From Candidatus Aminicenantes bacterium (GTDB lineage Bacteria > Acidobacteriota > Aminicenantia > Aminicenantales > Saccharicenantaceae), in contig CAVWFA010000003.1 of the NCBI GenBank assembly GCA_963754085.1, positions 391,854 through 455,853 on the forward strand: a DNA stretch of 64,000 bases, given 5' to 3'. Below the pieces are notes generated by a model that saw nothing but the letters and a program-made list of their open reading frames with translations, was not told the origin of the DNA and did no database searches. How positions within the stretch are numbered: the first letter of the stretch is position 1; each line of letters opens with the position of its first letter. The translations under genes were made by a program, and so were the position numbers. Below, one piece after another: positions 31,381 through 64,000 of the stretch.

Positions 31381-34108
31381 AACCGCATCGCCCGCCGCCC
31401 CTCCGTCCTCCAGTTTGCCGGGATCGTGTCGCTCGCGGCCCTGGCCTCTTATCTCCTCCTCACCCCCGCCGCGGCCCTGCCCGGCGCGGACGCTGCCGCG
31501 GGCGCGGCCAAGAAAGCCGCCCTCAAGCCCACCGCCGACGGCGCCAGGGCCTTCGCCCACGTCCGCTATCTGGCCTCGAACGATCTCAAGGGCCGCAAAT
31601 CCGGCACCCCGGAATACCGCCGCGCCGCCGAGTACGTGGCCGCCGAGATGCAGAAGGCCGGCCTCCAGCCGGGCGGCGACAACGGCACCTGGTTCCAGGA
31701 AGTCCCGTTCAAGAGCTGGTCGGACTTCGAGCAGCCCCTCCGCCTCGAGATCGTCTCGCCGCAGCGTCGCGTCTATTTCGCCGGCCGGGGCCGCGACTTC
31801 ACGCCGGTCGTCGGCACGGGCTCGGGCGCTGTTCGCGGCGGGCTCGTCTTCGCCGGCTACGGCGTCGCCGCCGGGAAGGACGGCTGGGACGACTACGCCG
31901 GGCTCGACGTCAAGGGCAAGATCGTCCTGCTCCTGCCGGACCTTCCCGCCTCCCTCGGAGACGACGCCAAGGCGGCTTGGACCTTCGAGAATAAGGTGAA
32001 GACCGCGGCCGCGAACGGCGCCGTCGGCCTCATCGAGATGGACCTCTCGACCCCCGGCGAGCCCCGCCGGCCCGGCGCCTCGCGCCAGCGCCCGGGCTTC
32101 CTCCGCGCCGGCCAGGCGCCGGAGGGCTTCGTCGTCCTGCGGGCCGGCCGCGACTTCCTCAACGACGCCTTCTATGCCGCCGGCAAGAGCTGGCGCGACC
32201 TCGTCAGCAAGACGCTCCGCCTGAAAAAGCCCTTCACCGCCGACGTCGGCGTCGAGGTCGAGATGGAAGCCCATTACGTCTCGGGCGAGCGGACGGCCCC
32301 GAACGTCGTCGGCATTTGGCCGGGCTCGGACCCCAAGCTCAAGGCCGAGGCCATCGTCATGGGCGGCCACCTCGACCACCTCGGCGTCGGCCTGGACGGC
32401 TGGATCTACCCGGGCGCGGACGACAACGCCACATCGGCCGCCACGGTCCTCGAGACGGCCCGGGCCCTGCGCGACGCCGGCTTCAAGCCGGCCCGGACCA
32501 TCGTCTTCGGCGCCTGGGCCGGCGAGGAGATGGGTCTCCAGGGCTCGCGCTGGTACACCGAACACCCGGTCATCCCCCTCGACAAGACCGTCCTTTATAT
32601 GAACATCGACATGGTCGGGACGGGCGACAGCGACCTCCTCGTGGGCGGCATGACCGAGTTCGCCGAGCTCTACGAGATCGTCAAGAAGGGCCTCGACCCG
32701 GTCGACGATCGCCAAGCTCAAGCCCCGGCCGAACTACCGCGGCTCCGACCACACCTCGTTCTGGGGCAAGAACGTCCCGGCCGTCAGCCTGCGCACGGGC
32801 GAGGTCCTGACCGAGAAGCTCGACGACGAGCACCCCGAGTACCACATGCCGGGCGACGGGCCGGGCACGATCGACCCCGAGCGCCTGCGCCAGGCCGGCC
32901 AGTATCACTGCGACGTCCTCCGGCACCTGGCGACCACCCGGGAGAACCTGCTCGACCCCCTCTTCCGGACGCTCTTCCTCCACCGCGACGCCATGGTCGT
33001 CGACATGCACTGCGACACGATCGGCCGGGCCCTGGCCGGCGAGGACCTGACGAAGGACCTGCCCAAGGGGCACATCGACATCCCCAAGCTCGAGCGCGGC
33101 GGCGTCGACCTCCAGGTCTTCGCCTGCTTCGCCCCGCCGCCGGCGAACGACCTCGAGAAGGCGAAGTCGGCCAACGGCGTTTTCGCCCAGATCGAGGCGG
33201 TCCGCGCGCTCGTCGACAGGAACCCCGACGACCTGGCCCTGGTCCTGTCCCCGCTCGACGCCAACGCCGCGAAGAACGAGAAGACCGGCGCGCTCATCGC
33301 CATCGAGGGCGGCTACGCCATCGAGAACGATCTCGTCCTCCTGCGGGAGTTCCACCGGGCCGGGGTGCGGCTGATGACGCTGACCCATTGGACGGCGACG
33401 GATTGGGCCGACGCCTCGGGCGATCCCCAGCCGGTCCACGGCGGGCTGACCGAGTTCGGCGAGAAGGTCGTGGCCGAGATGAACCGGCTGGGCATGATCA
33501 TCGACGTCTCCCACGCCGGCGACGAGACCTTTTGGGACGTGTTGAAGCTGTCCAAAGCGCCGGTCGTGGCCTCGCATTCGGCCTGCCGGGCGCTCTCTCC
33601 TCATCATCGGAATTTGAGCGACGAGATGCTCAAGGCCCTGGCGGAGAAGAACGGCCTCATCGGCATCACGGTGCTGCCCGGCTTCCTGAACAGCGCGCTC
33701 GAGGGGAAGCAGGACGAGCTCTACGACAAGGTCGCGGCCGAGCACGGCCTGCCCGCGGATTACCAGGCCATCGGCAAGGCCGAGCCGGCCAAGCGCGATG
33801 CCTTCTATGCCGACTTCGAGAAGCGCTGGGCGGCGCTCAAGAAGACGCTCCCCGTGGTGGACGTCAAGACCGTGGTCGACCACATCGACCACGTCGTCAA
33901 GGTCACCGGCGACTGCGACCACGTCGGCCTGGGCTCGGACTACGACGGGACGGGCGACACGCCGGCCGGGCTCGAGAATATCGGCCTCATTCCGAACATC
34001 ACCAAGGAGCTCGTCCGCCGCGGCTACAAGCCCGAGGACATCCGCAAGATCCTCGGCGCGAACTTCCTCCGCGTCTTCGCCGCCGTCGACCAGGCTAAAG
34101 AAAAGTAA
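31378..34108 (+). CDS. Exported M28 aminopeptidase (PA domain) fused in-frame to an M19 (renal-type) dipeptidase; one frame break near 32700
   Basis: M28 motifs: GGHLDH, DDNATS, GEEMGLQGS, and after the shift NYRGSDHTSFW..EYHMPGD. There is no stop before the M19 motifs (VVDMHCDT, RLMTLTHW, IIDVSHAG, SHSACRAL..HHRNL, GLGSDYDG). Confidence 0.7.
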
Positions 34109-34247
34109 TGGGGTCGGACCTCAGGAATAGACTTATTTATCAATTACTTAAGCCTGTTTTTTTAACTCTAAAAGGCTTAAAACCGGTGTTTTTGGCCTCA
34201 AAAACGAAGAGTTCGACTCTCTTTGTTTGAGCCGGAAGGGTTTTTTT
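34107..34247 (+). repeat. AT-rich structured intergenic element, copy X (starts AATGGGGTCGGACCTCAG)
   Basis: About 100 nt at roughly 70% identity to the reverse complement of 63324-63424. Contains GTTTTTG/CAAAAAC and AAGAG-TTCGACT-CTCTT hairpins and a T7 run. Confidence 0.7.
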
Positions 34248-34326
34248 GCTATTTTGTGTGTCCATGAGATCATCAACCTTCAGCACTTCTAAGGCTTCTT
34301 AGCGTCGCCGGCGACATTTTCCGCCT

Positions 34327-35883
34327 ATGGACCCCGATACGACAAACCCCGTCGAATTCGAGGCGCCGGTCATTCTCGACCGCGGCCGCCACCGCATCTC
34401 CCGGCGCGATATCGATCCCGACTGCCTCAAGGTCCTCTACCGCCTGAACGCCCAGGGCTATACGGCCTTCCTCGTCGGCGGGGCCGTCCGGGACCTGTTG
34501 CTCGGCCGCAAGCCGGCCGACTTCGACGTCAGCACCAACGCCCACCCCAACCAGATCAAGAAGCTCTTCCGCAACGCCTTCCTCATCGGACGGCGCTTCC
34601 GGCTGGCCCACGTCCGGTTCCAGGGCGGGAAGATCATCGAGGTGTCGACCTTCCGCCGCAAGCCCGACGAGGAGGAGCTCGCCGCCGAGCGCGAAGAGGA
34701 AGCCGCGCGCGCCACCGAAGCCGCGGCGAGGGCGGAAAGCGGCGAGGCTGTGGAGGGCCAGGGGGCGGAAGAAGACGCATCGGAGGACAAGAGGGACAGT
34801 CCCCTCCAGGGACGGTCCCCGGAGGAAGAACAGACGTTCGCCGCCGGCGCGGAGCCCGGCGCCGCGATCACCGAGGGGCCCGATCTCCCCGACGCCCCGG
34901 ATGACCTCCCGGCGGAGCCGCTCGCCGAAGGCGCTGAGCCCGCCGCCGCGGGCGGTCCAGGCAGGCGCCGCGGCCGCCCGCCGCTCAAGCCCATCGCCTA
35001 CGGCACGCCCCGCGAGGACGCCTTCCGCCGCGACCTGACCATCAACGCCCTGTTCTACGACATCGCCACCTATTCCGTCATCGACTACGTCGGCGGCCTC
35101 GACGACCTCGCGGCCGGCCGCGTCCGCATCATCGGCGACCCGGACACAAGCTACGTCGAGGACCCGGTCCGCATCTGGCGCGTCCTGCGCCACTCCTCCC
35201 GGCTGGGATTCACGATCGAGGAGCGGACGGCCGAGGCCATCGCCCGCCATGCTCACCTGCTCCAGGCCTGCCCCGGCTCCCGCCTCTATGAGGAGCTCAA
35301 CAAGGACATGAAGTCGGGCAACGTCGGGCCGTTCTTCCAGGCCGCGCGCCGCCACGGCCTCCTGCCCCGCTTCCTCGGCGAGGTCGGCGAGCTCTACCAG
35401 GCCTCGGACGAGGCCTTCGAGAAGGTCGTCTTCCTCCTCGGCGCGCTCGACGCCTCGATCCGCGGCGGCGGCTCCCCGCCGGCCGAAGTGGCCTACGGGC
35501 TCCTGCTCTGGCCCTGGGCCGAGCCGCAGCTCGCCGGTATCGAGGGCGACAAGCCCAAGGTCCTTTACGACGCCTTCCGGAGCTCCAAGGCCGCGGCCAC
35601 CGTCCCGAAATCCCTGCTCCTCGAGGCCGTCCACACCCTGGCCATCGTCGAGCACATGCTCCAGTCCCTGACCGACGGCAAGATGCGGTGGGCCCTCAAG
35701 ACCCGCCCCCGCTATCCGGAGGCCTCGCGGATCGCGTCGCTTCTCTTCGAGGGCACCTTCGGCGATTGCGACGATCCGTTCGCGGTCATCTACCGCGACC
35801 GCTTCGGCACCCGGCCCCGGTCCCAGCCCCACCGGCATCGCCGCCGCAAGAAGCCGGTGGTCCCGCCGCCGCCTCCGGAATAA
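34327..35883 (+). CDS. pcnB: Poly(A) polymerase I / CCA-adding-enzyme-family nucleotidyltransferase with a large acidic insertion
   Basis: LVGGAVRDLLLGR.P.DFDV, IGRRFRLAHV and ..EDA.RRDLTINALFYD motifs. A low-complexity E/A-rich segment of about 110 aa lies between them. Confidence 0.8.
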   Translation: MDPDTTNPVEFEAPVILDRGRHRISRRDIDPDCLKVLYRLNAQGYTAFLVGGAVRDLLLGRKPADFDVSTNAHPNQIKKLFRNAFLIGRRFRLAHVRFQGGKIIEVSTFRRKPDEEELAAEREEEAARATEAAARAESGEAVEGQGAEEDASEDKRDSPLQGRSPEEEQTFAAGAEPGAAITEGPDLPDAPDDLPAEPLAEGAEPAAAGGPGRRRGRPPLKPIAYGTPREDAFRRDLTINALFYDIATYSVIDYVGGLDDLAAGRVRIIGDPDTSYVEDPVRIWRVLRHSSRLGFTIEERTAEAIARHAHLLQACPGSRLYEELNKDMKSGNVGPFFQAARRHGLLPRFLGEVGELYQASDEAFEKVVFLLGALDASIRGGGSPPAEVAYGLLLWPWAEPQLAGIEGDKPKVLYDAFRSSKAAATVPKSLLLEAVHTLAIVEHMLQSLTDGKMRWALKTRPRYPEASRIASLLFEGTFGDCDDPFAVIYRDRFGTRPRSQPHRHRRRKKPVVPPPPPE

Positions 35884-35903
35884 CCGCAGAAAAGGAGATC
35901 CCC

Positions 35904-37178
35904 ATGGCGAACGCCCGTCCCGACACATTGACCCTCGGCGGCTGGACGATCCGCCGCGTCCTGAGCTTCATCGCCGGCCTGGGCATGATCGTCGCTTCGG
36001 TCATGACCATCCGGCACTTCTTCATGGCCAACTACCCCAAGACGATCTTCGCCGGCTCCTTCTGCGACATCAGCGCCTTCTTCAACTGCGACAGCTCGGC
36101 CTTCTCGTCCATCTCGCAGATCATGGGCATCCCCCTCGGGTTCTTCGGCATGTTCATGGGCGCCCTGACCGTCCTGGGGACGATCTTCCCGTCGGAGGCC
36201 TTCGAGCGCACCAACAAGTCGCTCTCGCTCGCCAACGTCGCCGGCGTCGTCACGCTCTTCCTCTACTCGGTCTTCCACCTCGGCAGCCTGTGCCTGCTCT
36301 GCTCGGGCTTCTACCTCTTCTCCATCCTGAGCTTCGTCCTGTTCGCCCTCTACGGCATCGACCGCGAGGTCCGGAACCCGGTCCGGCGCTGGGTCCGGCC
36401 GTCGATCAAGCTCCTCGCCGTCTTCGCCGTCGTCGCCGCGGCCGGCGCCTACGGCATGATCGAGTACCACAACGCCCGCAAGGCCGCGCAGACCGGCACG
36501 TCCGTCAACATCGTCAAGCAATTCTTCGGGCTGCCCAAGGTCGCCTCGCCCTCCTTCCTCTCGCCCTACTGGTCGGTGAAGTCGACCGACACGTTCGAGG
36601 AGGCGGCCATCCAGGTCATCGAGTACACGGACTTCATGTGCCCCGACTGCCTCTACCTCAGCCAGCAGCTGGAGAAGCTCAAGGTCGAGTTCGCCGGCAA
36701 GATGAACGTGGCCATCCAGTTCTTCCCGCTCGACGGCGCCTGCAACACGGTCGTCCCGGAGAAGGCCAACCTCCATCCCGGCGCCTGCGAGCTGACCTAC
36801 ATCGCCGCCGGCAACCCGGCCCGCTTCCCCGAGATGCACGACGAGATCTGGGCCAACTTCAGCTCCCGCAAGGACCCGGCCTGGCGCGCCGCCCTGGCCA
36901 AGAAGTACGGCACGGAGGGCGCGGCGGGCGACCCGGCCCTCAAGGACCTGATCACGCGGATCATCGACACCGGGGCCGAGTACGAGAAGACCTCGGAGAA
37001 GTTCTCGCACGGCATCCGCTCGACGCCGACCATGATCATCAACAACCGGATGATCATCGGCACGCTGCCCTACGACCACCTGAAGGCCATCTTCCAGGCC
37101 CTGGTCGAGGAGCGCGAGGGCGGCCCGAAGACGTTCATCGAGAACTGGGTCGAGCCGGTCCGGAAGAAAAAGAAATAG
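35904..37178 (+). CDS. VKOR (vitamin K epoxide reductase family) membrane domain fused to a DsbA/thioredoxin-like domain
   Basis: FCDISAFFNCDS loop cysteines, CLLC in a TM helix, then C-terminal YTDFMCPDC. ATG 35904 follows AAAGGAG. Confidence 0.85.
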   Translation: MANARPDTLTLGGWTIRRVLSFIAGLGMIVASVMTIRHFFMANYPKTIFAGSFCDISAFFNCDSSAFSSISQIMGIPLGFFGMFMGALTVLGTIFPSEAFERTNKSLSLANVAGVVTLFLYSVFHLGSLCLLCSGFYLFSILSFVLFALYGIDREVRNPVRRWVRPSIKLLAVFAVVAAAGAYGMIEYHNARKAAQTGTSVNIVKQFFGLPKVASPSFLSPYWSVKSTDTFEEAAIQVIEYTDFMCPDCLYLSQQLEKLKVEFAGKMNVAIQFFPLDGACNTVVPEKANLHPGACELTYIAAGNPARFPEMHDEIWANFSSRKDPAWRAALAKKYGTEGAAGDPALKDLITRIIDTGAEYEKTSEKFSHGIRSTPTMIINNRMIIGTLPYDHLKAIFQALVEEREGGPKTFIENWVEPVRKKKK

Positions 37179-40316: not shown

Positions 40317-41165
40317 TCAGAGCCAGAGCGAGGCCGCTTCGGGGACGGCGGCGCGGTCGACGAGCGAGATCGCGCCCTTGACGCAGACCGGCCGGCAGAT
40401 GCCGCAGCCGTAGCATTTCTTCGGATCGATCCGGGCCTTGGCCTTGCGCTTGTGGGGCAGGTACGCGTCGAAGGGACAGATCTTGACGCACTCGCCGCAG
40501 CCGACGCAGGCGGCTTCGTCCACCCGGGCCATGTATTCGCCCCGGAACATGACCGGCGCCCTGTGGGTCAGCGTCGCCTTCATGGCCATGCAGCCGGGCA
40601 GAGCGCAGTTGCAGATGCCGCCCAGGAAGGGCGTCACGAACGACCAGACGGTGTGGCAGAGCCCTTCCTCTTCGCTTTCACGCATCAAAGCCAGGGCTTC
40701 CTCTTTAGGCAGGAACTCGAGCCCGCCGGTCTGCGGTCCGATGAGATAGCCGGAGTCGACGCTCTTGAGGATGTTCAGCATCTCGCCGCCCTGCGGCGCC
40801 AGGCTGATGCCGTAGCAGTAGCGGTGCTCGGGGCCGAAGGCCACGTGGCGGCAGATGCAGGCCAGGCGGACGACCGAGGTCGTGAAGCCGAGGATGCGCT
40901 CGATGTCTTCGATCGGGACGACCTGGCCGAAATGATTGACCTTCTGCCTCTTGGTGATCGCACGCCGGATGCCGCGGGTGAAGAACGAGGGGATCCGGTC
41001 GAGCTTGCCGAGAGCCTTTTCCCCCTTCGCCAGGTGCTCCGGCGATTCGAAGAAACGCTCGATGAATTTCCGCCTGCGGAGGTCGCTGAGCAGGTCCTCG
41101 GCGTAGTTATTGGCGTTGAGGTACCACTTTTTCCCCTCGCCGTGCTGATGGCAGAATTCGCACAT
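40317..41165 (-). CDS. Uncharacterised Fe-S protein: N-terminal CxxC, Cys-rich core, C-terminal 2x[4Fe-4S] ferredoxin motifs
   Basis: MCEFCHQHGEGKKWYL start; CVGCGECVKICP and CYGCGICRPVC motifs. Low-GC3 codons upstream of 41165 argue against the 41276 start. Confidence 0.7.
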   Translation of the reverse strand: MCEFCHQHGEGKKWYLNANNYAEDLLSDLRRRKFIERFFESPEHLAKGEKALGKLDRIPSFFTRGIRRAITKRQKVNHFGQVVPIEDIERILGFTTSVVRLACICRHVAFGPEHRYCYGISLAPQGGEMLNILKSVDSGYLIGPQTGGLEFLPKEEALALMRESEEEGLCHTVWSFVTPFLGGICNCALPGCMAMKATLTHRAPVMFRGEYMARVDEAACVGCGECVKICPFDAYLPHKRKAKARIDPKKCYGCGICRPVCVKGAISLVDRAAVPEAASLWL

Positions 41166-41461
41166 CTTGAGGCCATCGTGCCACAGGCTTCCCGGGGTGT
41201 CAATGCTTTGAACATGGGGGCCAGGGGCCAAAGACGGAAAAAAACCTTTCCCAAGACGAATTTTCATCAAAAACACCGGAAAAGCAGGGTTTTTCCCCTA
41301 ACACGGCAAGGCTCGCACAAGCCGTTTTGAAGGCTCTGCCTGAAGGCCTCGGCAGAAGGCCGATCGGGCGGCCATTTTCGCAACCGGATCCCCGCCAAAG
41401 TCAGGAAAATCCTAGGAAAATCCCGATCGTTCTCGGAAAAGGACCGGGTTTTTAAAAGTGC

Positions 41462-41490
41462 TTGACAAGCAGTATGATATCCAGTATAGT
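41462..41490 (+). promoter_or_regulatory. Consensus-like sigma70 promoter of padR copy 1 (TTGACA-N17-TATAGT)
   Basis: Read directly from the sequence. The leader carries the direct repeat ACACATCAT at 41496-41504 and 41513-41521; the second copy overlaps the ATG. Confidence 0.6.
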
Positions 41491-41519
41491 TTAATACACA
41501 TCATAGTGAGATACACATC

Positions 41520-41867
41520 ATGACAAACATCGAACCCGATATCGGCAGCCTCGAAACGGAGATGAACCGGGGGTTCCTCCACATCCTCGTCCTGGCCCTG
41601 CTCGAAAAGGACATGTACGGCTATGCCATGGTCAAGCACATCGAGACGCTGGGCTACAAGGTCGAGGAGAACACTCTCTATCCCCTTCTCCGCCGGCTCG
41701 AGAAGAACGGCTGGATCGCGTCGAAGTGGAACCTGGCCGAGGACAGGCCCCGCAAGTTCTACGCGATCACCGCGGCGGGCCGCGCCCTCCGGGCCAACCT
41801 TCTCGACGTCTGGAAGACGCAGAACCGCGTCCTCGAAAAGACCATCAAGGAGACCTCCCATGTCTGA
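41520..41867 (+). CDS. PadR-family transcriptional regulator (copy 1)
   Basis: L.ILVLALL....YGY.....I......V.E.TLYP.L.RLE..G.I...W......RK.Y.IT..G. Confidence 0.9.
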   Translation: MTNIEPDIGSLETEMNRGFLHILVLALLEKDMYGYAMVKHIETLGYKVEENTLYPLLRRLEKNGWIASKWNLAEDRPRKFYAITAAGRALRANLLDVWKTQNRVLEKTIKETSHV

Positions 41868-42529
41868 CAAGCTCGAAGCTTATCTCGAAGAGATCAGCCA
41901 CTTCCTCTCCGGCCGCGCCGAGCGCGAGGAAATCCTGTCGGAGATCCGCAGCCACATCCTGGAAAAAGCCGCCGCGGAGACCGGCGCGTCGGGCGACGCC
42001 GCCGTCGAAACGGCCATCGCCGCCTACGGCGCCGGCCGCGCCGCGTCGCCGAGCGCTACGTCGAAGACCGGCCCATCATCGCCCCGGCCTACAAGCGCTA
42101 CCTCTTCCGTTACACGACGTTCCTCTTCGCCATCCACACCGCGCTGACCCTCATGGCCGTGGTCTTCAAGAAGGACTTCGTCCTCTTCCCGTTCCTGTAC
42201 ATGCCCAAGCTCGGCGTTATCGAGGCCCTGATGTACCTGCCGACGGCCTTCCTGGCCGACCTCGGCATCGTCACGGTCGTGCTCTACTTTATCACCCAGA
42301 GCGGCAAGGACATCAAGCTGCCCTGGCCGAAGTTCGCCGTCGACCTCGACGAGGTCAAGCCCCCGACAGAAGAGCTTCTGGCTGAGCCGCGTCGCCACGG
42401 CCGTCGGGGCGGTCATCATGCTGGCCATCACCGATTTCGCGCTCTATGTCTTCGCCCGGCACCAGACCATCTTCTTCGCCAACGTCGACTGGCACAACCT
42501 GCGTCCGCTGTTCATGCCGGCCGGCAGAA
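41860..42529 (+). pseudogene. PadR-associated HAAS/DUF1700-type membrane protein, copy 1: two frame breaks, 3'-truncated at the duplication junction
   Basis: MSDKLEAYLEEISHFLSGRAEREEILSEIRSHI. Breaks near 42040-42046 and 42366-42372 relative to copy 2. Homology ends at 42522. Confidence 0.7.
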
Positions 42530-43102
42530 TGCCGGCAGAGCGCAGTTGCAGATGCCGCCCAGGAAGGGCGTCACGAACGACCAGACGGTGTGGCAGAGCC
42601 CTTCCTCTTCGCTTTCACGCATCAAAGCCAGGGCTTCCTCTTTAGGCAGGAACTCGAGCCCGCCGGTCTGCGGTCCGATGAGATAGCCGGAGTCGACGCT
42701 CTTGAGGATGTTCAGCATCTCGCCGCCCTGCGGCGCCAGGCTGATGCCGTAGCAGTAGCGGTGCTCGGGTCCGAAGGCCACGTGGCGGCAGATGCAGGCC
42801 AGGCGGACGACCGAGGTCGTGAAGCCGAGGATGCGCTCGATGTCTTCGATCGGGACGACCTGGCCGAAATGATTGACCTTCTGCCGCTTGGTGATCGCAC
42901 GCCGGATGCCGCGGGTGAAGAACGAGGGGATCCGGTCGAGCTTGCCGAGAGCCTTTTCACCCTTCGCCAGGTGCTCCGGCGATTCGAAGAAGCGCTCGAT
43001 GAATTTCCGCCTGCGGAGGTCGCTGAGCAGGTCCTCGGCGTAGTTATTGGCGTTGAGGTACCACTTTTTCCCCTCGCCGTGCTGATGGCAGAATTCGCAC
43101 AT
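42512..43102 (-). pseudogene. 3'-truncated paralogue of the Fe-S protein (lacks the ferredoxin-type C-terminus)
   Basis: Matches residues 1 to about 190 of 40317..41165 up to ..FLGGICNCALP, then runs into junction sequence. Confidence 0.75.
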
Positions 43103-43399
43103 CTTGAGGCCATCGTGCCACAGGCTTCCCGGGGTGTCAATCCTTTGAACATGGGGGCCAGGGGCCAAAGACAGGAAAAAACCGTTCCCAGGACGAATTT
43201 TCATCAAAAACACTGGAAAAGCACGGTTTTTCCCCTATCACGGTCAAGGCTCGCACGGGCCGTTTTGAAGGCCCTGCCTGAAGGCCTCGGCAGAAGGCCG
43301 ATCGGGCGACCATTTTCGCAACCGGATCCCCATCAAAGTCGGGAAAATCCTAGGAAAATCCCGACCGGACTTGGAAAAAGACAGTGTTTTAAAAAGTGC

Positions 43400-43428
43400 T
43401 TGACAAGCCGTATGATATCCAGTATAGT
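43400..43428 (+). promoter_or_regulatory. sigma70 promoter of padR copy 2 (TTGACA-N17-TATAGT)
   Basis: Same architecture as 41462-41490. Confidence 0.6.
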
Positions 43429-43457
43429 TTATTACACATTATAGTGAGACACACATC

Positions 43458-43805
43458 ATGACAAACAACGAACCCGACATCGGCAGCCTCGAAACGGAGA
43501 TGAACCGGGGGTTCCTCCACATCCTCGTCCTGGCCCTGCTCGAAAAGGACATGTACGGCTATTCCATGGTCAAGCACATCGAGACGCTGGGCTACAAGGT
43601 CGAGGAGAACACCCTCTATCCCCTTCTCCGCCGGCTCGAGAAGAACGGCTGGATCGCGTCGAAGTGGAACCTGACCGAGGACAGGCCCCGCAAGTTCTAC
43701 GCGATCACCGCGGCGGGCCGCACCCTCCGGGCCAACCTTCTCGACGTCTGGAAGACCCAGAACCGCGTCCTCGAAAAGATCAACAAGGAGACCTCCCATG
43801 TCTGA
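43458..43805 (+). CDS. PadR-family transcriptional regulator (copy 2)
   Basis: 115 aa, 6 substitutions relative to copy 1. Confidence 0.9.
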   Translation: MTNNEPDIGSLETEMNRGFLHILVLALLEKDMYGYSMVKHIETLGYKVEENTLYPLLRRLEKNGWIASKWNLTEDRPRKFYAITAAGRTLRANLLDVWKTQNRVLEKINKETSHV

Positions 43806-44785
43806 CAAGCTCGAAGCCTATCTCGAAGAGATCAGCCACTTCCTCTCCGGCCGCGCCGAGCGCGAGGAGATCCTGTCCGAGATCCGCAGCCACATCCTGG
43901 AAAAGGCCGCCGAGGGGACCGGCGCGTCGGGCGACGCCGCCGTCGATAACGGCCATCGCCGCCTTCGGCCCGGCCCGCAAGGTCGCCGAACGCTACGTCG
44001 ACGACCGGCCCATCATCGCCCCGGCCTACAAGCGCTACCTCTTCCGCTACACGTCGTTCCTCTTCGCCATCCACGCCGCGCTGACCGTCATGGCCGTCGT
44101 CTTCAAGAAGGACTTCGTCATCTTCCCGTTCCTGTTCATGCCCAGGCTCGGCGTCATCGAGGCCCTGATGTACCTGCCGATGGCCTTCCTGGCCGACCTC
44201 GGCATCGTCGCGGTCGTGCTCTACTTCATCACCCAGAGCGGCAAGGACGTCAAGCTGCCCTGGCCGAAGTTCGCCGTCGACCTCGACGAGGTCAAGCCCC
44301 CGAAGAAAAGCTTCTGGCTGAGCCGCGTCGCCACGGCCGTCGGGGCGGTCATCATGCTGGCCATCACCGACTTCGCGCTCTATGTCTTCGCCCGGCACCA
44401 GACCATCTTCTTCGCCAACGTCGACTGGCACAACCTGCGTCCGCTGTTCATGCCGGCCCCCGGACGGCGCATCTCCCTCATCGTCATCGCCATGTTCGCC
44501 GCCTCGACCATGGCCCTCCTCGTCAAGCTCTTCACCCGCTCCCGCTGGGTCGACGTCGCTTCGAACGTCGTCACGCTCGGCCTCGTCGGCCTCCTTCTCC
44601 GCCAGCCCTTCGACAACCTCTTCGTCCCCGAGATCGCCGGCCGCTTTTCGCCCAGGATCGTCACCTGGGGGAAATATTCGGTCCTCTTCACGCTCCTCTT
44701 CATCGCCCTGATGACCACCATCGAGCTGGTCAAGAGCATCGTCATCATCAGCCGGCGGAAGCTCAATTCGGTGACACACAACTGA
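43798..44785 (+). CDS. PadR-associated HAAS/DUF1700-type membrane protein, copy 2 (full length; one frame break near 43946)
   Basis: The N-terminal helical domain is in the frame of 43798. The TM body (..VAERYVDDRPIIAPAYKRYLF... to NSVTHN) is in the frame of ORF 43664..44785. An extra T in GATAAC relative to GAAAC of copy 1. Confidence 0.7.
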
Positions 44786-62376: not shown

Positions 62377-63298
62377 TTACCGCGCCGGCGCCAGCGAGAT
62401 CAGCGCCCGCAGCGTCCTGAATCCCTCGATGTAATCGTTCGCCGTGAAAGTCAGGGTCCTGGCGTCCAAGCGCTTGACGTTGGGCAGCAGCATGGCTCCC
62501 ATGTCGGCCTGGGCCGAGACATGATAGGCCAGCTCGAAAGTATAGGGGGAGGTCATCTTGAACGGCTTGATCTGGCCTATCTTCCCGAGCGCGTCCTTGA
62601 CGCCCGCCTTGATCATCTGGCGGGCTTCGGCCATCGGGACGAGCTTGGCGGCCAGTCGGCCGTAGGCTTCTTTGACGGCGACCGTGGCGACATCCTTCCC
62701 CAAGACCTCACCCGCCTGCCGGCAGACTGCGGTATCTCCGCTGACCAGGATCACCGGGACGCCGTAATAGCCGGCGATCAGGGCAGTTGAGCCCCAATTC
62801 GGGCAGTTCGACGCCGTTGACCTTGATGGCCCGGACGACGCTTCCCGATATCGTATGGTCGAGGATGGCGTTCTCCGTGCCGGCCTTGGCGTGGTATCCG
62901 ATGAGCAGACAGGCCGCGTAGGAGGCGTCGATGCCCTGCATCATCGAAAGAGGCTTCGGAGAGCCGCTGATGAGAATGGCCTTGGGGTGCAGGTCGGCGG
63001 GGCTGACGTTTCGCATGGAGCCGTGGGAATCGTTGACCACGACCTCGGTGGCGCCGGCTAAGAGCGCGCCTTCGACTGCGGCGTTGACGTCCTCGGCCAT
63101 CCATTTGCAGCCGGCCCCGTACTCGGCCGTTCCCGGCGACGTCTGGTCGCCGTGAACGATGCCGGAGATCCCCTCCATGTCGACCGAGATGAAGACCTTG
63201 AGGGGCGGCTTGGGGGCTGGCTTCTGCTGGGCGGAGGCAAAGACCAGAGGAAGCGAAATGATGGCGACGGTGCCGAGGGCGAGGACTGTTCTTTTCAT
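62377..63298 (-). CDS. M55-family D-aminopeptidase (DppA-like), exported; frame break near 62786
   Basis: ISVDMEGISGI, NDSHG and GYHAKAG motifs. Continuation ..LIAGYYGVPVILVSGD.. runs in the neighbouring frame. Confidence 0.8.
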
Positions 63299-63323
63299 TG
63301 AACCCTCCGAAAAACACAATATT

Positions 63324-63424
63324 CTGTTTTCAGGGCCAAAAACATCGATTTAAGGCCTTTATCGTGCCAATTTATCGGTCTAACTTATTGATTTCTATGT
63401 ATATTTCTGAGGTCCGACCCCATT
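63324..63424 (-). repeat. AT-rich structured intergenic element, copy Y (minus strand; starts AATGGGGTCGGACCTCAG)
   Basis: An 18-mer identical to 34107-34124, then about 70% identity over about 100 nt, including the TGTTTTTGGCC..AAAAC hairpin. Confidence 0.7.
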
Positions 63425-64000
63425 GTAAGGCGCCTTCCGGCCCTGGCAGTGCTCGCGGTCGCAGAGCTGGCAGGCGACGAATCCCTCCTCCGAGGGGAAG
63501 AGGATACCGGAGATGGACTTCCGCGGTACCATGAGCATGCTGTCGGTCAGGCGCACCCCGATGAGTTTCTCCGTATCCCCGAAGATCGAGAAGAGCTTCG
63601 GTTGCTCGGTGATGGGCCAATCCACGAGCGACCCGGGGCTCATGTTCGAGAGCGGGCCAAGGCCATAGCGCGTCTCGATGTGCTTCGCGAGCCAGTCCGC
63701 AGCCTGTTCGAGAGCGATGTTGGCGATCTCCTCGAGGTAATACTGCTTGAGGAGATCGTCCTGGGCCGCGGCCGCCCGCTCGAGCTCAGGCCCGACCGTG
63801 ATGATGTACGGAAAGACCTTGTTAGCGCCTCTCGAGATTCTTCGCGCAGGAGCGGGCTATCGAACGTGACCCCGGCCACCTCGACCGTCCCCTCCCCTTC
63901 GCCCCGACGAACGCAACGTCCCAGGCCGCGCGGGAACGGATGAGCTCCCGGGCCAGGCGTACAATCTCGTCCAGGCTCTCGAATCCGGCCCTCGCGGGTC
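63395..64000 (-). CDS. Protein resembling the methionine-synthase B12 activation domain (Met_synt_B12-like), 5' end outside window; at least 2 frame breaks (about 63830 and about 63905)
   Basis: ..SPGSLVDWPITEQPKLFSIFGD..IGVRLTDSMLMVPRKSISGILFP. Upstream segments (AGFESLDEIVRLARELI.., GTVEVAGVTFDSPLL.., NKVFPYIITVGPEL..) run in three frames. Confidence 0.6.

Follow-up and report, generated by a model that had tools for sequence, protein, structure and literature searches.

A dispersed Aminicenantes repeat at gene boundaries, probably REP/REPIN-like and served by a RAYT-type transposase

Why should the same unusual sequence lie between two unrelated pairs of genes in one bacterial genome? In a 64,000-nt stretch of a Candidatus Aminicenantes genome (GenBank assembly GCA_963754085.1, contig CAVWFA010000003.1, positions 391,854 to 455,853; hereafter the window), the exact 18-mer AATGGGGTCGGACCTCAG occurs twice, at 34107-34124 on the + strand (copy X) and at 63407-63424 on the - strand (copy Y), where shuffled sequences give an expectation of 0.07 matches with three mismatches permitted. 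X stands upstream of a pcnB-like gene, and an initial annotation, made from the letters alone, read it as a terminator/antiterminator leader of that gene. The shared 18-mer and the similarity of X and Y over about 100 nt, both pointed out by that annotation, are borne out here. We suggest a different origin for them: an Aminicenantes repeat, of which this genome has nine copies including X and Y, that is probably akin to REP (repetitive extragenic palindromic) sequences and REPINs (REP doublets forming hairpins) and served by a Y1 (HUH) transposase of the RAYT (REP-associated tyrosine transposase) type.

The alignment of X with Y runs for about 100 nt from the start of the 18-mer and then breaks off abruptly after ...AAAAACG. 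A genome-wide search with nhmmer, of the kind the initial annotation had called for, returned nine full copies, with a mean column identity of 71%, X and Y matching at E about 1e-27. A covariance model made from these nine scores X at 99.8 bits (model positions 1-101) and Y at 100.6 bits. The genome itself (here G000) is a 2.96-Mb assembly in 32 contigs, 66% GC and 73% complete, and the model was run on 60 related genomes (G-numbers; C-numbers denote contigs), all relatives compared being metagenome-assembled genomes (MAGs). The element was found in 35 of the 60, at 1 to 66 or more copies each; among them are 26 of the 36 congeners and members of several further families in the order. A search of one genome per GTDB species with a 21-nt pattern found at least 80 stretches (90 reported); among the matches listed, the source MAG bears the label Candidatus Aminicenantes or Aminicenantia in nearly every case, and the few under other labels are probably mislabelled. 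X and Y are members of a clade-wide dispersed repeat, which is found in both orientations and next to genes of unrelated kinds.

The unit is about 100 nt long and about 40% GC, against 66% for the genome, and consists of a (Y)AAT flank, the 15-mer GGGGTCGGACC[T/A]CAG, an AT-rich core of about 60 nt and a terminal hairpin. In an alignment of 150 copies, the 15-mer is conserved at 90-99% and the T and A runs of the hairpin at more than 90%, while ATCAAT, TTAG and GCTTAAA are moderately conserved and the rest of the AT-rich core at 40-60%. The three bases before GGGG, tallied in an unbiased set of copies, are AAT in 57% and ATT in 13%, usually with C or T before them. The sole conserved helix is the 7-bp GTTTTT-loop-AAAAAC stem, in which 89% of cells pair and both sides have changed in four of the seven pairs, more than in any shuffle or slid control. 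The earlier view of X and Y as paralogous copies with a conserved hairpin is upheld. A helix within the 15-mer (GGGGT with ACCTC) was rejected because its second pair is broken in half the copies, those with the A variant, and the 15-mer is therefore conserved at the level of sequence.

In other genomes about half of the units stand in inverted doublets, 210-330 bp long and set tail to tail so that the 15-mers face outward; the regions fetched hold 44 such doublets and 48 solos. No direct target-site duplication was found at the 44 doublets; their outer flanks are inverted (YAAT...ATTR) rather than direct, so that none is visible. With genes called by a simple GC-frame heuristic, the GGGG side of solos lies at gene 3' ends 30 times and at 5' ends 12 times, and that of doublet arms 38 and 37 times, so that an orientation rule relative to genes is weak in solos and absent in doublets. 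At both sites in the window the unit meets coding sequence. The TAA stop of the dipeptidase gene upstream of X (34106-34108) overlaps the TAAT flank, and the first 30 nt of Y (63424-63395) form the codons NGVGPQKYT and the TAG stop of a Met_synt_B12-like ORF (open reading frame), as translation confirms for the ending already noticed in the initial annotation. A frame preference for such GVGPQ tails was looked for and rejected: 31 read-in ORFs are in this frame and 29 stop at TAAT in another, with no clear bias.

A candidate for the enzyme that serves these units comes from the relatives. In G024 an ORF with a weak Y1_Tnp match, coding for 267 aa from its ATG, stands between the units of a (+...-) pair about 1 kb apart, and since the same inverted pair brackets this gene, the doublets look like the larger unit with the gene removed. 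The G024 protein matches the whole of the NCBIfam profile NF047646, 'REP-associated tyrosine transposase', at E = 1.9e-17, and its G033 and G035 orthologues pass the Pfam Y1_Tnp cut-off. Neither TSNHIHLL, the HUH motif, nor the tyrosine motif YIDLNMVRAGVV (YIDLNMVRAG) varies among 11 orthologues. A PDB search with a single transposase protein gave no match; with a profile of the orthologues, the top match was 4ER8, E. coli TnpArep (E = 9.8e-5), aligned through both motifs. Inverted arms lie on both sides of the gene in G024, G010, G004, G035, G041, G039, G022 and G045, and the downstream arm only in G033 and G049. The (+...-) pairs at G010:C17 were also inspected for a transposase and contain only housekeeping genes.

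Close orthologues of the transposase (E < 1e-25) are present in 18 of the 60 relatives, mostly one per genome, with two or three in G057, G041 and G035. The repeat is carried by 16 of these 18, at a mean of about 20 scored copies, and by 19 of the 42 genomes that lack the gene, at a mean of about 3.5, a contrast that is indicative only because the genomes are related and many are incomplete. Units are densest at the gene: G024 and G010 have about 17-18 of them within about 20 kb of sequence, and G033 has 14 within 16 kb. In these three genomes nearly every intergenic gap near it holds a solo or a doublet, with metabolic genes between. In G024, G010, G004, G022 and G015 the same ABC gene is found near it, at a distance of about 0.1-6 kb, and this shared neighbour in five species suggests that the transposase gene has been inherited vertically. 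The two gene-bearing genomes without model matches carry paralogous transposase lineages that have inverted termini of their own, about 1 kb apart: GTCGGGCCCRGCTA in G055, and GCCTTGGCTAAC in G008 with a similar sequence in G023. The G055 motif gave 15 matches, clustered at its transposase, against 0 for the reversed control. Some orthologues are interrupted, with one in-frame stop in G010 (locus L166, C26:228385-229179, TAG) and in G004 (L168, C1:335093-335866, TGA), and with the match split in two in G015, G022, G027 and G029; these genes are possibly decaying.

On this basis we propose that the transposase would recognise the hairpin and/or the 15-mer on single-stranded DNA, cutting and rejoining it without target duplications, and that units would spread mostly to nearby AT-richer gene boundaries, the survivors being those insertions that left neighbouring genes working. 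Survival of harmless insertions would fit what is seen of the units, which sit on stops, donate a stop or a few C-terminal codons (Y) or lie upstream of a promoter (X). Catalysis by the 267-aa protein, the use of single-stranded DNA and the identity of the bound motif are the inferred parts of this scheme.

Several observations weigh against such a scheme. The NF047646 score of the G024 protein, 63.5 bits, is below the equivalog cut-off of 80. No close RAYT orthologue was found in G000, which has only distant paralogues (E = 1.4e-10 and 1.4e-6); as this assembly is 73% complete and the ABC neighbourhood syntenic with the transposase is missing from it too, absence from the genome is not established. 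Ten relatives carry six or more copies without the gene, among them the 7-contig, 94%-complete G028. The palindrome of 20-40 nt whose doublet folds into one long hairpin, the hallmark of REP sequences, is not what the Aminicenantes unit offers, with its length of about 100 nt and 7-bp A/T stem. Doublet arms are 64% identical, against 66% for unrelated copies, which rules out doublets as long palindromes and makes them poor hairpins. The copies are old, hardly any pair exceeding 90% identity, so that one presence/absence case is left to speak for recent transposition. In that case G062 lacks a doublet that G024 has, between flanks that are 94-99% identical: in the empty allele (G062, as in G036 and G031) two genes overlap as ATGA, and the filled allele (G024, also G010) has its own TAA stop and an AAGGAG-N7-GTG start. 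The junctions are not clean, with extra stop and ribosome-binding-site (RBS) sequence on both sides of the filled allele.

The age of the family is also seen at individual sites. The X site is filled in at least seven species, with orthologous copies in G003, G033, G010, G035, G024 and G062; elsewhere it holds diverged versions in four species and 15-mer-only remnants in four, and is empty in at least seven. Two further species have orthologues of Y that share its junction, and the copy at C4:21570 and the doublet at 82.7 kb on C4 are likewise common to several species. Copies in G000 are about 63% identical pairwise, and within-genome averages are 63-69%. Comparison of G000 with G003, the relative closest to it, gives 85% identity for the element and 80% for its core, against 97.5% for adjacent non-coding DNA and 91-92% for the flanking genes; with the ends conserved, the core drifts and the ends are held. 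A second, inverted unit lies 3' of pcnB in G033, G024, G032 and others, so that pcnB is bracketed there, and the same gap is empty in G000 (C3:427733-427772, about 35880-35920 in the window). These post-pcnB units have an extended -10 sequence (TGCTATAAT or TGGTATAAT) just outside the 15-mer, toward the next gene.

Base 12 of the 15-mer is nearly uniform within each genome and differs between close relatives and between orthologous copies: T and A occur 53 times and once in G033, 0 and 31 times in G024, 0 and 14 in G010, 1 and 7 in G003, and 7 and 2 in G000. Such change in concert points to a reader that acts in trans, to gene conversion or to turnover at fixed sites.

Held ends and a possible reader in trans raise an alternative, that the unit is a cis-element selected for by the host (bound by a protein, acting on mRNA 3' ends or stability, or serving as a gene-boundary module that supplies stops, RBSs and promoters) and that its link to the transposase is historical only. 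The long conservation of the ends at the orthologous sites X, Y and C4:21570 would be expected of such an element, as would the survival of the 15-mer alone at the dipeptidase 3' end in four species, a base 12 that is uniform per genome and differs between close species as if read in trans, the stop and start that the G024 filled allele brings with it, and the 9-21 copies kept in genomes without a transposase. We nevertheless regard it as unlikely, since copy number among congeners ranges from 0 to more than 66, which leaves no essential role; units keep no consistent orientation to genes, have no terminator signature and no GVGPQ frame preference, and in many species the orthologous site is empty with nothing visible in the unit's place. 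An ordinary MITE (miniature transposable element with inverted repeats) derived from a DDE transposon of the Tn3 kind, with the Y1 gene as cargo or neighbour, is less probable again, and we give it little credence. The inverted termini of doublets do begin with GGGG, and the 15-mer plus ...TTAAG about 40 nt in resembles the Tn3 inverted repeat, GGGGTCTGACGCTCAG...TTAAG. DDE_Tnp_Tn3 (PF01526) is absent, however, from G000 and five repeat-rich relatives, the doublets have inverted flanks in place of direct target-site duplications and show no 5-bp duplications, and the Y1 gene is bracketed alike in eight species of four families of the order, at least seven of them with both arms, with paralogues that have their own termini.

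The reading from which the question arose, that X works through mutually exclusive hairpins as a terminator/antiterminator switch in the pcnB leader and that Y is a regulator paralogous to it, we consider scarcely credible. It has in its favour that CAAAAACG has, in X alone, two alternative partners, GTTTTTG upstream and CTCTTTGTTT downstream, and that RNAfold draws the pairing with the latter. The downstream stem (34206-34224) and the T7 run (34241-34247) do exist in X. The fold is not significant (z = -1.63, with 10 of 200 shuffles folding as well), and the partner strand lies outside the repeat, in sequence that cannot be aligned among orthologous loci except with G003, so that the alternative stem is conserved in the closest relative only; Y and the other copies, a dispersed family beside unrelated genes, have no such partner. 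No Rfam family matched anywhere in the window at gathering thresholds, and neither an intrinsic terminator nor a strong sigma-70 promoter was called in 33900-34500. The T7 run falls inside the spacer of a promoter-like motif, TTGAGC-N17-TATTTT, downstream of the element. A riboswitch or attenuator was rejected on these grounds.

That motif is kept in orthologous loci with or without the element (G001 has the motif and no element), and since it is below the consensus threshold of the promoter scan, a pcnB promoter here is predicted from its conservation. In the other clade of the genus, TGCTATCCT is followed after about 7 nt by an ATG. The position of the motif puts X upstream of the likely pcnB promoter and not in its leader, and suggests that the pcnB mRNA is leaderless and starts downstream of X. 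In most congeners the ATG next to the motif starts pcnB itself, and in G000, G003, G033, G035 and G020 it opens a short ORF; the pcnB start of G000 lies 62 nt downstream of the short-ORF ATG, without a visible Shine-Dalgarno sequence.

If the unit is REP/REPIN-like, it should be compared with systems already described. REP/REPIN-RAYT systems are known from Gammaproteobacteria, with RAYTs of Group 2 in E. coli and Group 3 in Pseudomonas; it has been argued that REPIN-RAYT pairs are replicators that persist for long and pass down vertically, and the documented association with REPINs is confined to two gammaproteobacterial RAYT groups (PMC3116915, PMC5581495, bioRxiv 10.1101/2021.07.10.451892). 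The Aminicenantes system resembles them in its extragenic repeats dispersed as singles and inverted doublets, in a mostly single-copy, syntenic Y1/HUH transposase between inverted copies, in a repeat abundance that follows the gene, in the separate repeat of each transposase lineage, in sites that persist long by vertical inheritance and in the lack of target duplications. Unlike the GC-rich palindromes of 20-40 nt that define REP sequences, its units are AT-rich and about 100 nt long; their conservation is divided between the terminal 15-mer and, 65 nt from it, a weak A/T hairpin, they have no GTAG or CGTC tag, and many overlap gene 3' ends. Unlike REPINs, the doublets have arms only 64% alike and form no long hairpin, and the copies are far more diverged than a REPIN 'quasispecies'.

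A Y1 HUH transposase, recognition of an end hairpin (here inferred) and the lack of target duplication are shared with the IS200/IS605 family (e.g. IS608), where a short motif lies beside one end; the (Y)AAT here could likewise be a target or cleavage motif. In IS200/IS605 the ends are not inverted repeats of each other and the whole element is multicopy, whereas the Aminicenantes gene is mostly single-copy with inverted flanks, and these features, with the better matches to RAYTs (NF047646 and 4ER8), disfavour an IS200/IS605 element proper. MITEs and other long intergenic repeats such as Correia/CREE, ERIC and RUP are similar in total size (100-250 bp), in intergenic position and in inverted termini, and can also give their neighbours stops, C-terminal codons or promoters. 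They are linked to DDE transposases and make target duplications (TA for Correia), neither of which is seen for the Aminicenantes units. A full-text literature search found no paper connecting Aminicenantes with REP, RAYT or MITE.

Taken with the rivals, the probable reading remains that of a REP/REPIN-like repeat served by a RAYT-type transposase, of which X and Y are probably inherited copies, immobile at present, whose effects on the genes beside them (dipeptidase, pcnB and Met_synt_B12-like) are incidental at most. The features of the loci are collected in Table 1.

Table 1. Coordinates of the repeat copies, their parts and associated features (window numbering unless a contig is given).
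Feature	Position	Strand	Basis or remark
Copy X, repeat unit	34107..34207	+	Covariance model, alignments, consensus fold
X, AAT flank	34107-34109	+	
X, invariant 15-mer GGGGTCGGACCTCAG	34110-34124	+	
X, AT-rich variable core	34125-34185	+	
X, terminal hairpin	Stem 34187-34193 with 34200-34206, loop 34194-34199	+	
Copy Y, repeat unit	63324..63424	-	Covariance model
M19 dipeptidase gene	32846..34108	+	Pfam PF01244, E = 7e-105; ORF list
Non-repeat spacer, X to pcnB	34208..34326	+	Sequence, orthologous loci
Small local hairpin	34206-34224	+	RNAfold
Promoter-like motif TTGAGC-N17-TATTTT	TTGAGC 34227-34232, TATTTT 34250-34255	+	Conservation in orthologous loci
12-codon ORF	34264-34302	+	ATG 8 nt after TATTTT; pcnB ATG at 34327
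Poly(A) polymerase / CCA-adding family gene (pcnB-like)	34327..35883	+	Pfam PF01743, PF12627
Three clustered copies, G000	C4:18.9-21.6 kb		nhmmer
Inverted tail-to-tail pair, G000	C4:82.70-82.93 kb		nhmmer
One copy, G000	C13, contig end		nhmmer
One copy, G000	C24		nhmmer
Transposase gene, 267 aa from its ATG	G024:C3:217540-218340		Bracketed by inverted units
Paralogous RAYT-like locus L176	G055:C4:75.4-78.9 kb		
Paralogous RAYT-like locus L174	G008		
Paralogous RAYT-like locus L175	G023		

The genes around Y show irregularities of their own. The Met_synt_B12-like frame that ends in Y (Pfam PF02965; 63395-64000, - strand) has an in-frame TGA near 63857-63859, upstream of which the translation is rich in Arg, Gly and Pro and resembles a shadow frame; this may be a short gene, of about 150 aa, or one with a frameshift. 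The gene downstream of Y, an M55 peptidase (D-aminopeptidase), is spread over two overlapping ORFs (62708-63319 and 62377-62754, - strand), which suggests a frameshift or sequencing error. A third relative of X and Y, suggested by the initial annotation at 41230-41300, was undetected with filters off at E <= 10. That segment lies in an unrelated tandem direct duplication of about 1.8 kb (40600-42390 and 42537-44330, 93-100% identical, offset 1937-1938 nt with a 1-nt indel near 41250), for which either a gene that duplicated recently or an artefact of assembly could account. Elsewhere in the genome, G000:C16:71851-71868 (- strand) matches the 18-mer at 15 of 18 positions (GATATGGTCGGACCTCAG) and falls outside the repeat family by hidden Markov model; it sits about 130 nt upstream of a tRNA- or tmRNA-like 3' end (GGTTCGAGTCTCGTCGTCCCCGCCA).

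A wider reading is possible, though we hold it only tentatively and lean against it: that this is a vertically inherited RAYT-repeat partnership outside the Proteobacteria with long AT-rich units, in which base 12 would switch in concert in all copies of a genome, old and otherwise diverged as they are, tracking the resident transposase, and the units would act as gene-boundary modules giving stops, C-terminal residues and some RBSs and starts. If true, the same logic with a different repeat architecture in Aminicenantes would broaden the REPIN-RAYT picture, and the genome-wide concerted switch of base 12 offers a testable handle on the co-evolution of transposase and repeat. A false lead is removed, there being no pcnB riboswitch or attenuator at 34107-34326, and for annotation GVGPQ-type C-terminal tails and TAAT stops in Aminicenantes genomes can be recognised as repeat-derived. 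In an uncultured lineage widespread in sediment and groundwater, a repeat by which many gene ends are shaped now has a name and a model.

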